From contig OZ024741.1 in the NCBI GenBank assembly GCA_964016885.1, positions 17,174,001-17,238,000 of the forward strand: DNA of 64,000 nucleotides. Reading direction: 5' to 3'. Of the stretch, positions 35,196-57,437 are shown piece by piece. Position 1 is the first letter of the stretch. Each line of letters begins with the position of its first letter. The DNA comes from Eledone cirrhosa. Its lineage: Eukaryota. The notes beneath the pieces were generated by a model that was not told the origin of the DNA, ran no database searches, and worked only from the letters and a program-made list of their open reading frames with translations. A program made the translations under genes and the position numbers.

Positions 35196-35879
35196 TGTTG
35201 TAAAATATCTAGAAAAGAATAATGGCAATCTAATATAAATAGCTACATAAATGTGTTCTGTCTTTAAGGAAGTTAACAAATAGAAAACAGAGCTTGAAGT
35301 GACAGAAAGTCATGGGGAGAACAACAACATAACTAAAGAAATATATATAAAAGATTAAGCTAAAAAAAAACTGAGGCGGTGAATTGGCAGCCGTTAGTGC
35401 TTTGGAATCGGTTACTATACACCATGGGGAATCACTCATTGTCCATTACTGGAGAAACATGGAAGGGTTGAGTGAGGTAGAGGAAGAAAGTATTACAGTC
35501 TCATCTTATAGAAACACTGATATGTTACTGGAACTATCCAAGGACGAATCGATGTGCTGCACAGCATGATGGAACGGAAATACATATGAAATATAATACA
35601 CACACACACACACACACACACATATGTATATATATTTATTTATATATATACATACACACCCACGCATATATATATATAAGATATAAGATTCGTACCTCAT
35701 ACAATCTTATATTTTATACATATGTATAAACACATGCACACACACATATATATATATATGCGCACACATATATATATATATATAATTATGTGTGTGTGTG
35801 TAAACTTAACAAGATAAGCTAATATTTGACCAAAACATACAACAAAGACAAACAAACAAAGCAAACAGATTTGATTAAA

Positions 35880-36785
35880 TATTTGATCGAACTTTGGCTG
35901 TAGATGTCAGAGGGTGAAATATTTGATGGGACTTTGGTTGCAGAGGTCAGAGGGTGAAATATTTGATGGGACTTTGGTTGCAGAGGTCAGAGGGTGAAAT
36001 ATTTGATGGGACTTTGGTTGCAGAGGTCAGAGGGTGAAATATTTGATGGGACTTTGGTTGCAGAGGTCAGAGGGTGAAATATTTGATGGGACTTTGGTTG
36101 CAGAGGTCAGAGGGTGAAATATTTGATGGGACTTTGGCTGTAGATGTTAGAGGGTGAAATATTTGATGGGACTTTGGTTGCAGAGGTCAGAGGGTGAAAT
36201 ATTTGATGGGACTTTGGCTGTAGATGTCAGAGGGTGAAATATTTGATGGGACTTTGGCTGTAGATGTCAGAGGGTGAAATATTTGATGGGACTTTGGTTG
36301 CAGAGGTCAGAGGGTGAAATATTTGATGGGACTTTGGTTGCAGAGGTCAGAGGGTGAAATATTTGATGGGACTTTGGTTGCAGAGGTCAGAGGGTGAAAT
36401 ATTTGATGGGACTTTGGTTGCAGAGGTCAGAGGGTGAAATATTTGATGGGACTTTGGTTGCAGAGGTCAGAGGGTGAAATATTTGATGGGACTTTGGCTG
36501 TAGATGTCAGAGGGTGAAATATTTGATGGGACTTTGGCTGTAGATGTCAGAGGGTGAAATATTTGATGGGACTTTGGTTGCAGAGGTCAGAGGGTGAAAT
36601 ATTTGATGGGACTTTGGCTGTAGATGTCAGAGGGTGAAATATTTGATGGGACTTTGGCTGTAGATGTCAGAGGGTGAAATATTTGATGGGACTTTGGTTG
36701 CAGAGGTCAGAGGGTGAAATATTTGATGGGACTTTGGTTGCAGAGGTTAGAGGGTGAAATATTTGATCGGGCTTTGGCTGTAAGG
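35880..36785. repeat. 40-bp minisatellite, about 22 copies, two alternating variants
   Basis: Unit ATTTGATGGGACTTTGG(TTGCAGAGG/CTGTAGATG)TCAGAGGGTGAAAT. Confidence 0.97.
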
Positions 36786-37442
36786 GCATTAAAACATACA
36801 CAATGGGTAAACATTGCTGTTGTTATTGTTATTATGGTCGAAACTTTTCCAACCGTGGTCTTCCCCTGCTTTCATGACTCATTATCCAATGATTCTTTCC
36901 CATTTTAAGACAGTTATGTGTGATTTCAAGAAGATTTGACTATTATTTCTAGCATGTCGGTCAACTAACTACATGGGAACTATCAAGTTGGTTGTTGGTG
37001 GTGGTCTTAATGGTTTAGTGATAATGGCAGAGTTGTTGTTGTTGGTGGTGGTGTTTACATTAGTAACCTCAACACTATTATATTCCAACAGCAGCAGCAG
37101 CAGCAACACCACCACTACCACAACAACAACAACAACAACATCAATAGTAATATCAATGGTAACACCATCAACATCAATATCAATACATTATCAACGACAA
37201 CAACATCAAGGTCAACAACAACACCAACAACAACATTAACATCAGGATGAACGACAACAATAATGTCAAGATCAACAACAACAACGTCAACAAGAGTAAC
37301 AACAACAACATCAATAAAAATACAGTATTCGGCATACACCAATGTCAGTTTCGTTACTGAGTTTTTGACCAACGATGAGAAATGTCTTTAGACAGTGACA
37401 AAATAATTCACTGATTGACTGAGCACATGACCACAGGATGTT

Positions 37443-40400
37443 GGCAACTCTGGTTAACAACTTCTCCCTTTCTCGGATCCCAAGACAGTGGCAACTCTGG
37501 TTAATAACTTCTCCCTTTCTCGGATCCCAAGACTGTTGCAACTCTGGTTAATAACTTCTCCCTTTCTCGGATCCCAAGACAGTGGCAACTCTGGTTAATA
37601 ACTTCTCCCTTTCTCGGATCCCAAGACTGTGGCAACTCTGGTTAACAACTTCTCCCTTTCTCGGATCCCAAGACTGTTGCAACTCTGGTTAATAACTTCT
37701 CCCTTTCTCGGATCCCAAGACTGTTGCAACTCTGGTTAATAACTTCTCCCTTTCTCGGATCCCAAGACTGTGGCAACTCTGGTTAATAACTTCTCCCTTT
37801 CTCGGATCCCAAGACTGTTGCAACTCTGGTTAATAACTTCTCCCTTTCTCGGAACCCAAGACTGTTGCAACTCTGGTTAATAACTTCTCCCTTTCTCGGA
37901 TCCCAAGACTGTGGCAACTCTGGTTAATAACTTCTCCCTTTCTCAGATCCCAAGACTGTGGCAACTCTGGTTAATAACTTCTCCCTTTCTCGGATCCCAA
38001 GACTGTGGCAACTCTGTTTAATAACTTCTCCCTTTCTCGGATCCCAAGACTGTTGCAACTCTGGTTAATAACTTCTGCCTTTCTCGGATCCCAAGACTGT
38101 GGCAACTCTGGTTAATAACTTCTCCCTTTCTCGGATCCCAAGACTGTGGCAACTCTGGTTAATAACTTCTCCCTTTCTCGGATCCCAAGACTGTTGAAAC
38201 TCTGGTTAATAACTTCTCCCTTTCTCGGATCACAAGACTGTTGAAACTCTGGTTAATAACTTCTCCCTTTCTCGGATCCCAAGACTGTTGCAACTCTGGT
38301 TAATAACTTCTCCCTTTCTCGGATCCCAAGACTGTGGCAACTCTGGTTAATAACTTCTCCCTTTCTCAGATCCCAAGACTGTTGCAACTCTGGTTAATAA
38401 CTTCTCCCTTTCTCGGATCCCAAGACTGTTGCAACTCTGGTTAATAACTTCTCCCTTTCTCGGATCCCAAGACTGTTGCAACTCTGGTTAATAACTTCTC
38501 CCTTTCTCGGATCCCAAGACTGTGGCAACTCTGGTTAATAACTTCTCCCTTTCTCGGATCCCAAGACTGTGGCAACTCTGGTTAATAACTTCTCCCTTTC
38601 TCGGATCCCAAGACTGTTGCAACTCTGGTTAATAACTTCTCCCTTTCTCAGATCCCAAGACTGTTGCAACTCTGGTTAATAACTTCTCCCTTTCTCGGAT
38701 CCCAAGACTGTTGCAACTCTGGTTAATAACTTCTCCCTTTCTCGGATCCCAAGACTGTTGCAACTCTGGTTAATAACTTCTCCCTTTCTCGGATCCCAAG
38801 ACTGTGGCAACTCTGGTTAACAACTTCTCCCTTTCTCAGATCCCAAGACTGTTGCAACTCTGGTTAATAACTTCTCCCTTTCTCGGATCCCAAGACTGTG
38901 GCAACTCTGGTTAACTTCTCCCTTTCTCGGATCCCAAGACTGTTGCAACTCTGGTTAATAACTTCTCCCTTTCTCAGATCCCAAGACTGTGGCAACTCTG
39001 GTTAATAACTTCTCCCTTTCTCAGATGCCAAGACTGTGGCAACTCTGGTTAATAACTTCTCCCTTTCTCAGATCCCAAGACTGTGGCAACTCTGGTTAAT
39101 AACTTCTCCCTTTCTCGGATCCCAAGACTGTTGCAACTCTGGTTAATAACTTCTCCCTTTCTCAGATCCCAAGACTGTGGCAACTCTGGTTAATAACTTC
39201 TCCCTTTCTCGGATCCCAAGACTGTGGCAACTCTGGTTAATAACTTCTCCCTTTCTCGGATCCCAAGACTGTGGCAACTCTGGTTAATAACTTCTCCTTT
39301 TCTCAGATCCCAAGACTGTGGCAACTCTGGTTAATAACTTCTCCCTTTCTCGGATCCCAAGACTGTGGCAACTCTGGTTAATAACTTCTCCCTTTCTCGG
39401 ATCCCAAGACTGTGGCAACTCTGGTTAATAACTTCTCCCTTTCTCGGATCCCAAGACTGTGGCAACTCTGGTTAACAACTTCTCCCTTTCTCAGATCCCA
39501 AGACTGTTGCAACTCTGGTTAATAACTTCTCCCTTTCTCGGATCCCAAGACTGTGGTAACTCTGGTTAACAACTTCTCCCTTTCTCGGATCCCAAGACTG
39601 TGGCAACTCTGGTTAACAACTTCTCCCTTTCTCAGATCCCAAGACTGTGGCAACTCTGGTTAACAACTTCTCCCTTTCTCGGATCCCAAGACTGTTGCAA
39701 CTCTGGTTAATAACTTCTCCCTTTCTCGGATCCCAAGACTTGCAACTCTGGTTAATAACTTCTCCCTTTCTCAGATCCCAAGACTGTTGCAACTCTGGTT
39801 AATAACTTCTCCCTTTCTCGGATCCCAAGACTGTGGCAACTCTGGTTAATAACTTCTCCCTTTCTCGGATCCCAAGACTGTGGCAACTCTGGTTAACAAC
39901 TTCTCCCTTTCTCGGATCCCAAGACTGTGGCAACTCTGGTTAATAACTTCTCCCTTTCTCGGATCCCAAGACTGTTGCAACTCTGGTTAATAACTTCTCC
40001 CTTTCTCGGATCCCAAGACTGTGGCAACTCTGGTTAATAACTTCTCCCTTTGTCGGATCCCAAGACTGTGGCAACTCTGGTTAATAACTTCTCCCTTTCT
40101 CGGATCCCAAGACTGTGGCAACTCTGGTTAATAACTTCTCCCTTTCTCGGATCCCAAGACTGTGGCAACTCTGGTTAATAACTTCTTCCTTTCTCGGATC
40201 CCAAGACTGTGGCAACTCTGGTTAATAACTTCTTCCTTTCTCGGATCCCAAGACTGTGGCAACTCTGGTTAATAACTTCTCCCTTTCTCGGATCCCAAGA
40301 CTGTTGAAACTCTGGTTAATAACTTCTCCCTTTCTCGGATCCCAAGACTGTGGCAACTCTGGTTAATAACTTCTCCCTTTCTCGGATCCCAAGACTGTGG

Positions 40401-40715
40401 CAACTCTGGTTAATAACTTCTCCCTTTCTCGGATCCCAAGACTGTTGCAACTCTGGTTAATAACTTCTCCCTTTCTCAGATCCCAAGACTGTGGCAACTC
40501 TGGTTAATAACTTCTCCCTTTCTCGGATCCCAAGACTGTTGCAACTCTGGTTAATAACTTCTCCCTTTCTCAGATCCCAAGACTGTTGCAACTCTGGTTA
40601 ATAACTTCTCCCTTTCTCGGATCCCAAGACTGTGGCAACTCTGGTTAATAACTTCTCCCTTTCTCGGATCCCAAGACTGGCAATTCTAGCTAATAATTTC
40701 TCCCTTTGTCAGATC
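37443..40715. repeat. 47-bp minisatellite, about 70 copies
   Basis: Unit GCAACTCTGGTTAATAACTTCTCCCTTTCTCGGATCCCAAGACTGT(G/T). No unique spacers. Confidence 0.98.
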
Positions 40716-55552: not shown

Positions 55553-55560
55553 TATATACA

Positions 55561-55773
55561 TAACGCACCAGAGTACACAATATTTAGGGTAGTAGAGTGG
55601 GTAATAGGAGAAAGTATGACCCCGACGGCAGAGCTCAAGCCGTTTTTTCACGACTATTTCTGGACTAAATTAGAATTTTTAGCTTGGTAAATATTTACCA
55701 CGCTAAAAATTCTAATTTAGTCCAGAAATAGCTGTCGAAACGGCTTGAGCTCTGCCGTCGGGGTCATACATTT

Positions 55774-55778
<5 letters not shown>
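55561..55778 (-). mobile_element. Family C fold-back element, centre 55692/55693
   Basis: Axis GGTAAAT|ATTTACC. Partial tail on the left. Confidence 0.88.
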
Positions 55779-55812
<34 letters not shown>

Positions 55813-55856
55813 TATATTTCGTTTCATGACTCTCCCAAAGTAAAACAATATATATA

Positions 55857-56290
55857 TATATATTATAAAGAAAACGAAAAATCAGTGATGCATCTGGACT
55901 TAGTTTATTTCGTGTTACAAATGTTTCGCCGGCATGTAGCTCGAGTCATGGTCCTTGTATGGATCTGGCTGATTCTACTTCTGCGGGTTCTTTCAGACAC
56001 GGGTGTTATGTCCGGAGCAAATTTTATCACGTGATAAAATTTGCTCCGGACATAACACCCGTGTCTGAAAGAACCCGCAGAAGTAGAATCAGCCAGATCC
56101 ATACAAGGACCATGACTCGAGCTACATGCCGGCGAAACATTTGTAACACGAAATAAACTAAGTCCAGATGCATCACTGATTTTTCGTTTTCTTTATAATA
56201 TATACACTCTACTCTGATGAATATCGAGTGCTAATTTTGGCATACCGCCTATGGAAGCACCATAGCTACCACTATACACAAATACCCCCC
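55857..56290 (+). mobile_element. Family F perfect palindrome (about 170-bp arms, centre 56030/56031), HHR in each arm (56060-56150 on plus), tail 56205-56290
   Basis: Identical ORF on both strands in the track. CGTGT-CTGAAAGA...GAA-ACA-tt-TGT-A-ACACG. Confidence 0.92.
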
Positions 56291-56293
56291 CCC

Positions 56294-56372
<79 letters not shown>

Positions 56373-56376
<4 letters not shown>

Positions 56377-56914
56377 AGGGTGTTAAAGTTTGCTTGAAGC
56401 ATTGTGAAATGTGTAAAATATGTAGTTTAGAAAGCCACAACAATGCAGATGGGAAATCTCGAGGTAGGAAGTGAGTGAGAAATAGGAGAAAAGTGAAAAT
56501 TGAGAGAAACGAAAATGAAAACAAAACAAAGGTAGAAGGGTTACCGTAGTGGAGATTTAATCCCAATATTTCGGGCTTACGCCCATCAACGGGGGAAAAT
56601 TCCAAAAGGGGGGGAACAGGCTAAGCCGGAGAAAGTTGTATTGTCGTTAAAACATAGGAATGCCGGCATTCCTATGTTTTAACGACAATACAACTTTCTC
56701 CGGCTTAGCCTGTTCCCCCCCTTTTGGAACTTTCCCCCGTTGATGGGCGTAAGCCCGAAATATTGGGATTAAATCTCCACTACGGTAACCCTTCTACCTT
56801 TGTTTTGTTTTCAGTTTCGTTTCTCTCAATTTTCACTTTTCTCCTATTTCTCACTCACTTCCTACCTCGAGATTTCCCATCTGCATTGTTGTGGCTTCTA
56901 AACTACATATTTTA
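56373..56914 (-). mobile_element. Family G near-perfect palindrome (about 250-bp arms, centre 56664/56665), variant HHR in each arm, tail 56373-56413
   Basis: Axis AATGCC|GGCATT. CCGTTGA-T-GGGC-gtaa-GCCC-GAA-ATAT-T at 56737-56764. Confidence 0.9.
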
Positions 56915-56936
56915 TATATATATATATGTTTATATA

Positions 56937-56979
<43 letters not shown>

Positions 56980-57012
56980 GTATATATATATATGTGTATA
57001 TATATATATGTG

Positions 57013-57061
<49 letters not shown>

Positions 57062-57065
<4 letters not shown>

Positions 57066-57254
57066 TTAATATAGATGAGATTCTACAGGACTAGAACTGT
57101 TTCATTCATTAGAAATCATCAGGAATCCTGATGATTTCTAATGAATGAAACAGTTCTAGTCCTGTAGAATCTCATCTATATTAAAACTGTTATACTCTGC
57201 TATGTATTGAGTACCTTACTTACTGTGGTTACCTCCGATTCAACCCGGAATAAC

Positions 57255-57255
<1 letters not shown>
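57062..57255 (+). mobile_element. Family D perfect palindrome (63-bp arms, centre 57125), back-to-back HHRs, tail 57189-57255
   Basis: ATCATCAGGA-A-TCCTGATGAT, then CTGATGA-T-TTC-taat-GAA-T-GAAACAGTTC. Confidence 0.92.
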
Positions 57256-57301
<46 letters not shown>

Positions 57302-57304
<3 letters not shown>

Positions 57305-57437
57305 CGAAGGAAGTGTGGTAAGGAACCAGATGGACCATAACGCACCAGAGTACTCAATACGTAGGGTAGTGGAGTGGACAGTCCAGAAATAGCCATCGAA
57401 ACGGCTTGAGCTCTGCCGACGAGGTTGAACATTTTCC

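Follow-up and report, generated by a model that had tools for sequence, protein, structure and literature searches.

Inverted pLTRs, one-sided tails and junction palindromes are already on record for PLEs, together with a self-priming proposal from 2013 (PMC3846280, PMC8557442; here and below, statements on published work refer to the covered parts of the cited sources). In Penelope of D. virilis as well as in Pen2a and Pen3a_Av, a head-to-head inverted, 5'-truncated copy is found together with a one-sided tail and a palindrome at the junction, and the tail overlaps the start of the ORF (PMC2377424, PMC3846280, PMC8557442). For Penelope, the pLTR has been documented to contain a promoter (PMC2377424). 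The origin of the inverted pLTRs and one-sided tails of PLEs was named as unsolved in PMC8557442, and the covered part of PMC5753468 contains nothing on palindromes. Members of the Hydra clade (Craig et al. 2021, PMC8557442) insert into (TA)n, carry a hammerhead in the pLTR and are generally shorter than 3 kb; their proteins have an RWK-like motif, DKT in place of DKG, a CxCX5C linker, and a GIY-YIG endonuclease without CCHH but with CxxC and CxH around a conserved E and N. PAc, a Poseidon element from Anolis, belongs to a clade different from those of the families analysed here (Frangieh et al. 2024, PMC11167929). In vitro, its protein cuts and extends both strands of an AT-rich target and initiates reverse transcription at two positions of the RNA that delimit the tail, and a dimer has been predicted; parts 1-2 of that article make no link to inverted pLTRs. 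Non-LTR retrozymes are short repeats of PLE origin that lack coding sequence, contain a type I hammerhead and form head-to-tail tandem arrays (bioRxiv 10.64898/2026.07.22.740005). In the openly accessible literature, screened mostly at the level of listings, we found neither twin priming nor start-site run-off applied to the inverted pLTRs of PLEs.

We analysed a stretch of 64,000 nucleotides from contig OZ024741.1 of Eledone cirrhosa (hereafter the window), the host genome of which comprises 3.0 Gb. Within a TA microsatellite, the window contains three short mirror-image PLE insertions of the families F, G and D, each consisting of a pLTR and a tail. In contrast to Penelope, Pen2a and Pen3a_Av, the entire insert is made up of two pLTRs, and tails measure 38-80 nt instead of 30-40 nt. 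The thousands of copies in this genome also allow junctions to be evaluated statistically, and the outcome speaks for two cDNAs rather than self-priming.

Materials and Methods

Exact tail patterns matched 7,171 places for D, 80 for F and 1,140 for G, with 0 control matches; exact patterns were used for D, the arm of which consists of words too common for a DNA search. Tail-anchored copies were chosen by tail only and in listing order, resulting in 75 D, 72 F and 71 G copies (n = 218). For D, one duplicate and one microsatellite artefact were removed from the first 77 of the 7,171 places. For F, the first 74 of the 80 places were reduced by one duplicate with identical flanks and by one double-tail copy counted once; the window copy is included. 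For G, two of the first 75 of the 1,140 places were dropped by the filter, one was a duplicate, and one double-tail copy was counted once. Ends were mapped with trimmed references and a complexity filter against (TA)n matches. For dating, we calculated the probability of zero differences at the family-average arm divergence. The frame of the G start codon was taken from the tandem copies L036, L050 and L091, and motif criteria for the Hydra clade from section 11 of PMC8557442 (covered in part).

Results

The arms of family F measure 174/174 nt with 100% identity and no spacer, followed by an 80-nt tail at the right. Family G has arms of 251/250 nt that differ by two substitutions and one indel, again without spacer, and a 38-nt tail at the left, which overlaps the likely ORF start as in Penelope, Pen2a and Pen3a_Av. 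Family D has arms of 63/63 nt with 100% identity, a 1-nt spacer and a 67-nt tail at the right (Table 1). The order (TA)n-arm-axis-arm-tail-(TA)n, which the first-pass annotation had read in all three, thus applies to F and D, and to G only when read on the minus strand. The same annotation regarded the families as unrelated, which agrees with the lack of any blastn match among F, G and D (E <= 1), but not with the homologous proteins of the F and D parents (41-43% identity).

Table 1. Features of the F, G and D insertions, with positions counted from the first base of the window
Feature	Position	Strand	Remarks
F tail-less inverted arm	55857..56030	-	From inner start site (80 nt inside tail end) to family 5'-end hot spot
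F sense arm (pLTR)	56031..56204	+	Begins at hot-spot position -254
F hammerhead-like motif	56060..56150	+	Mirror copy within left arm; cleavage predicted from the sequence
F tail, 80 nt	56205..56284	+	In ORF-bearing copies (L129, L142/L309), runs on into start of Hydra-type ORF
C11 tract, then (TA)n target tract (F-G interval)	56285..56375
G tail, 38 nt	56376..56413	-	Includes the probable start codon of the ORF (56402-56400) and the initial codons
G tail-bearing sense arm (pLTR)	56414..56664	-	No hammerhead found
G tail-less inverted arm	56665..56914	+	Join at self-complementary CG of natural sequence
Degenerate (TA)n/(TG)n tract (G-D interval)	56915..57061
D tail-less inverted arm	57062..57124	-
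D sense arm	57126..57188	+	Core CTGATGA 57128-57134, GAAA 57147-57150; predicted cut after 57166
D tail, 67 nt	57189..57255	+	In L307, leads on to intact 712-aa Hydra-type ORF

The surroundings of the three insertions show several further features. The tract of 11 C (56285-56295) stands in place of TA right after the F tail and before the next (TA)n; among four F copies without (TA)3 after the tail, it is present only in the window copy. A further family, C, has the same arm-axis-arm-tail layout at 55559-55777 and 57303-57437, on either side of the trio, so that five elements lie in a row. Other family C copies are located near 14525, 27343, 28508, 30617, 32115 and 60429, and the 5' ends of this family cluster near an initiator-like (C)AGTCC. 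The D and C tails (57209-57220 and 57350-57364) have a common 15-nt stretch around TATTGAGTAC, possibly a shared protein-binding or initiation motif. Strong clustering of different families was rejected in favour of a weak tendency, as another of the four families was found within 300 nt upstream in 13/160 cases and at 700-1000 nt in 8/160. A run of five elements is uncommon but plausible, because copy numbers are high. The window also contains long minisatellite arrays at 37442-40715, 4269-5822 and 35877-36777, with units of 47, 48 and 40 nt.

Parents with ORFs for RT and GIY-YIG endonuclease sit in the same genome. In the D parent L307, pLTR and tail lead straight into an intact ORF of 712 aa, for which Pfam returned only a weak GIY-YIG match below the cut-off (E = 0.019) and no RVT_1; the RT motif YRDD was read from the sequence, and the Atlas neighbours of this ORF are animal HTH_animal/GIY-YIG/RVT_1 clusters (0.96-0.99). 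The F tail runs into broken ORFs in L308 and L309, which provided the above-mentioned identity to the D ORF. The G parent L091 (RVT_1, E = 1.6e-10; GIY-YIG, E = 4.5e-5) carries pLTRs both in tandem and inverted, as in the arrangement of EN+ PLEs, and its protein can barely be aligned to that of D. RWK-like and DKT motifs are represented by IRWRAF and SDKT in D, and by MRWHA or MMWRAF and SDKT in F (L309). The CxCX5C linker reads CNCLNKEAC in D and CNCRASTQC in F (in another frame of a broken copy), and the endonucleases lack CCHH and contain CDLC and CMH (D) or CRLC and CRH (F). Furthermore, (TA)3 occurs within 16 nt after the tail end in 71/75 D and 68/72 F copies. Judged by these motifs, D and F carry the signature of the Hydra clade, and G belongs to another clade. 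However, the units of L307 and L309, extended by long 3' regions rich in microsatellites, reach about 5-6 kb, in contrast to the short units published for Hydra elements; F additionally has an extra base in the ribozyme core, and D is present in at least 7,171 copies. Compared with Neptune and Nematis, G possesses a CCHH-type core (CDKC, HV..H), but its linker is CX4CX6C and not CX2-5CxxC. Membership in Naiad/Chlamys was rejected, the endonuclease being C-terminal and not N-terminal in all three parents, and the same applies to non-LTR retrozymes, since the window copies are single, head-to-head, truncated and derived from ORF-bearing elements.

Further candidates were inspected in this context. 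In L092, an ORF of 969 residues (L092:1826-4732, minus strand) precedes a D copy; it was rejected as D parent, as it belongs to another PLE family, which ends before a (TA)n tract. This ORF comprises RT, GIY-YIG, a CX4CxxC linker and an Asn-rich N-terminus, and its end resembles positions 55819-55847 of the window. L093 and L094 revealed no direct link of F to an ORF, and a PDB search gave one weak RT match only (E = 0.2). L096 (C1:83678500-83688400) is a head-to-tail array of units of about 1.07 kb, each with D pLTR and tail, which represents either a retrozyme-like structure or tandem amplification.

At first look, the genome contained 1,862 candidates for F and 1,449 for G. Near-symmetric axes at the same position were recorded at 3,487 D, 41 F and 3 G loci; the exact F centre of the window is found in 6 of the 41 F loci, window included. 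In three further samples, 8 raw RAD reads were mapped across a D-type axis, and at least three of these span all 53 bases. This support is at the family level: no read or contig across this particular locus was found, and mapping to the whole stretch gave pile-ups of reads derived from other copies, which do not confirm the locus itself. The missing spanning read and the difficulty of sequencing long palindromes would suit a fold-back read or assembly artefact. However, the mirror halts at fixed element boundaries and the flanks differ between the two sides, which argues against a fold-back read; in addition, the G arms differ at three places, and copies number in the thousands with varied centres. 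Together with the recurring axes and the RAD reads, this makes an artefact extremely improbable. At the family level, the first-pass view that the palindromes are not artefacts was therefore borne out, and so was its description of the elements as PLEs that inserted into (TA)n and carry inverted pLTRs with a tail on one side only. The anatomy is real, already known and common in this genome, and the elements are new members of known PLE kinds. Arm identity had also been taken to date F and D as very recent. Relative to its family, F is indeed young, with a probability of 0.009 for zero differences, although arm-to-arm conversion could mimic such youth, whereas the 63 identical bases of D are uninformative (0.47) and G is average.

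An inverted partner was identified in at least 120 of the 218 sampled copies, which is a lower bound because partners past about 1.6 kb were out of view. The outer end of these partners lay at a fixed inner site in 108 cases (48 D, 32 F and 28 G), at the tail end in four and elsewhere in eight; for F, it was positioned at -80 in 27 of the 32 inner-site copies. Among the 108 copies, the tail-less arm was longer in 49 and the tail arm in 24, while 35 were symmetric. With a margin of at least 15 nt, the split was 38 to 18 in favour of the tail-less arm (p = 0.010). None of the 56 junctions with such asymmetry contained (TA)3 between the arms, so the arms are not separate insertions. In F, the tail-bearing arm scarcely exceeded the tail in 8/32 copies, and 9 of 18 short tail arms stopped at -94 to -70, i.e., around the inner site (p about 1e-4). 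The corresponding stop cluster comprised 2/48 copies in D and 1/28 in G and is clear only in F, where it resembles a primer collision. Four copies have a double tail and two solo copies are tail-less (L039 and L059), which indicates that either site can prime. Arm divergence in copies with a longer tail-less arm compared to symmetric copies was 1.0% vs 1.1% in G, 2.7% vs 2.5% in F and 2.8% vs 1.2% in D, the higher D value stemming mostly from two copies. In three of the 32 F copies (L146, L150 and L295), a brief sense segment beginning close to the hot spot is followed by a jump; these copies resemble either a palindrome that was later shortened by a deletion or a fold-back bridge.

Template variants are common to the two arms of a copy. 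Divergence was lower from a copy's own partner than from the median other copy in all families (0.8% vs 5.8% in G, 1.8% vs 3.5% in D, 2.8% vs 5.1% in F), and in G the partner was strictly the closest in 12/26 cases; gene conversion could likewise homogenise arms. Ends at most 4 nt apart were observed 23 times against 13.9 by permutation in D (n = 48), 10 against 1.7 in G (n = 28) and 4 against 4.3 in F (n = 32). Away from the hot spot, such coupling was seen 3 times against 0.27 in D and 6 times against 0.75 in G, although two of the six G cases have long central inserts. Spacers of 0-2 nt were found in 22 of the 35 symmetric copies. As a fold-back loop in RNA or DNA requires at least 3 nt, these spacers are too tight for a base-paired fold-back. 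At the F axes, arms meet within a few bases in 39/41 loci with varied centres, and no natural micro-hairpin able to prime fold-back was detected there; moreover, natural F and G sequence is unable to pair so as to yield the observed centres. The asymmetric junctions (n = 73) displayed microhomology of at least 2 nt in 31 cases and inserts of at least 5 nt in 15. Several inserts copy nearby sequence of the element itself, similar to synthesis-dependent end-joining, and sense-strand fillers occur at the axes of L146, L260 and L046. L053 (C3:179497927-179498077) carries four repeats of the G axis spaced 41 nt apart, an iterated template-switch scar.

5' ends accumulate in a single interval per family, which holds 68/120 ends in D, 34/97 in F, where 28 ends fall on just three bases, and 21/94 in G. 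These fractions are understated, because the denominators include ends where mapping stopped at microsatellites. All three axes of the window fall inside the hot spot of their family. In D, TATAAATA is located exactly at -30 from the initiator-like A of CCAGATT, the TATA-like box is retained in 21/21 copies reaching that far, and the full-length copy L307 starts at the hot spot; among the ORF-bearing copies, only one of seven begins at its own hot spot. The F hot spot coincides with an initiator-like CAGT and also with the foot of a hairpin of -15.8 kcal/mol, where RT may stall. Stalling at a hairpin was rejected for D (-3.3 kcal/mol) and G (-2.8 kcal/mol upstream), and the G hot spot is 15 nt wide with neither a TATA box nor a strong hairpin. 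Going by such promoter-like motifs, the shared 5' end is probably the transcription start.

The first-pass annotation had described outward-facing ribozymes in all three palindromes. Judged by motif, this applies to D and, with a variant, to F, whereas none was found in G. D carries a predicted canonical type I hammerhead with CTGATGA in 42/42 matched copies, a helix I of 6 bp, a helix III of 4 bp and a weak helix II; in the window copy, the axis removes four of the six bases of the 5' strand of helix I. The candidate motif of F has the variant core CTGAAAGA in 34/35 matched copies, a 5-bp helix I (CGTGT/ACACG), a long helix II, a 2-bp helix III and a predicted cut after 56145. Hammerhead-type topology arose in 1-2 of 1000 shuffles (F: 2/1000). 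In G, no such topology was detected on either strand of the whole unit, and GTTGATGGG is present in 46/49 matched copies. Rfam gave no hammerhead match at the gathering score nor up to E = 10, and sub-gathering matches of miRNA type were rejected as generic hairpin matches. Outside the palindrome, the minimum-energy structure is still 4-5 kcal/mol more stable than the ribozyme fold. Within the palindrome, the hairpin is favoured by 153 (F) and 78 (D) kcal/mol, and read-through transcripts are therefore predicted to be plain dsRNA hairpins, the palindrome sequestering both hammerheads in the folding model. The idea of a ribozyme on whichever strand is transcribed thus fails in G and would be expected to fail in F and D. 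Hammerhead cleavage was also rejected as the cause of the 5'-end hot spots, because these lie upstream of the ribozyme and few ends map near the predicted cut (only L104, L194 and L204 in D, and L141 in F). In L104 and L194, junction microhomology involves both strands of helix I, and the tail arm begins at the predicted cut site. Additional CTGANGA...GAAA motifs were noted in the window at 186(-), 1355(-), 15079(+), 19173(-), 21916(-), 34849(-), 52249(-) and 60850(-); they are probably pLTRs of other PLE families, with 21916 being a D copy.

Discussion

On balance, we consider it probable that these insertions arise by twin priming: reverse transcription would start at two sites of the RNA, one at either boundary of the tail, both cDNAs would run off at a common 5' end, and end-joining would follow. 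This is the simplest scheme to account for every class of copy, and it agrees with the in vitro behaviour of PAc (PMC11167929). It is inferred from finished insertions, for which we observed the parents, the constant position of outer ends, asymmetry in both directions, variants common to both arms, hot spots of 5' ends and the sequences at the junctions. An RT-endonuclease protein, probably a dimer, would nick both strands of the (TA)n tract, and the two free 3' ends would prime on element RNA at different places, namely the tail end and the fixed inner site; one primer of each kind would result in one tail per insertion. Both cDNAs would head for the 5' end of the RNA, mostly on the same molecule, and the rear enzyme, as set by the order of priming, would either stop at the inner primer, leaving a tail-only arm, or displace the first cDNA. 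Both would then reach the same end, usually the transcription start of the pLTR. Joining of the cDNA 3' ends, bluntly or via 1-6 nt of microhomology and sometimes with templated filler, would yield a palindrome with a spacer of 0-2 nt, and an early stop or trimming of one cDNA may leave either arm longer. Deletion after insertion could also lengthen either arm in relative terms. For L1, twin priming, said to have been described by Ostertag and Kazazian in 2001, reportedly involves two target ends that prime on one RNA and cDNAs that are joined at microhomology; the second primer is said to anneal at variable internal sites, giving an inversion with little duplication. The tail-only arms described here resemble primer collision in that system, whereas both priming sites are fixed here and the same region is often copied twice, which leads to palindromes.

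A tail-primed snap-back had been the initial reading of the palindromes, i.e., a single cDNA that folds back on itself and is copied as far as the tail boundary. Under this model, the reversed asymmetry would come from later central deletions of unstable palindromes. Self-priming has been proposed for PLE junction palindromes (covered part of PMC3846280), and such a route accounts for shared variants, for symmetric axes off the hot spots and for the three F copies that resemble a palindrome with a deletion. However, a snap-back copy cannot exceed its template, so the tail-less arm should be a subset of the tail arm, yet it is the longer one in 49/108 copies. Later deletion should not favour the tail-bearing arm either, which is at odds with the 38 to 18 split, and reversed copies are not older in F or G. 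Snap-back also offers no reason for a stop at the inner site, the spacers are too tight for its loop, and the symmetry of F is fully explained by both ends halting at the hot spot. As a general route, it thus appears distinctly unlikely. The two routes cannot be told apart in the 24 copies whose tail arm is the longer one, because fold-back with a loop of at least 3 nt and joining of two cDNAs yield the same sequence.

Unlikely, too, is a hybrid of both routes, in which both target ends prime and one cDNA, often the tail-less one, folds back to make a sense strand that pairs with the other cDNA and thereby bridges the gap. It explains how two cDNAs of the same polarity become joined and fits the microhomology at 31/73 asymmetric junctions; the fillers of L146, L260 and L046 and the iterated axis of L053 show fold-back-type synthesis near the junction, and fold-back inversions at breaks are known in yeast (covered part of PMC11724301). 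Against it stand the 0-2-nt spacers in 22/35 symmetric copies, natural F and G sequence that cannot pair to the observed centres, and tail-only arms, which lack an overlap for annealing. Arkhipova and colleagues proposed for head-to-head pLTRs that an antisense transcript primes itself and the hairpin cDNA is integrated afterwards. This was published for the same anatomy (PMC3846280, in the part covered), but in vitro initiation takes place on sense RNA at two tail-bounding sites (PMC11167929, likewise), and tail-only arms joined to long inverted arms are not predicted, so we regard it as very unlikely for the copies studied here.

Extending the preferred twin-priming mechanism to PLEs in general is more tentative and falls a little short of an even chance: two-ended priming on one RNA at fixed tail-flanking sites would be shared by at least two clades, the element's own mRNA would be copied twice by run-off at its 5' end to give the short palindromes, the axis would map the transcription start site, and a single scheme would cover both tail and inverted pLTR. 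What makes the present data valuable is their junction statistics, which suggest a model of integration that can be tested. Thousands of minimal insertions are available in this genome, and their junctions discriminate between integration models. The results tie both-strand extension and two start sites, as seen in vitro, to a genomic signature and allow sharp predictions for 5' RACE and reconstitution, and the intact Hydra-type ORF of L307 is usable for biochemistry. For the host, the thousands of short perfect palindromes are potential sources of cruciforms and dsRNA.
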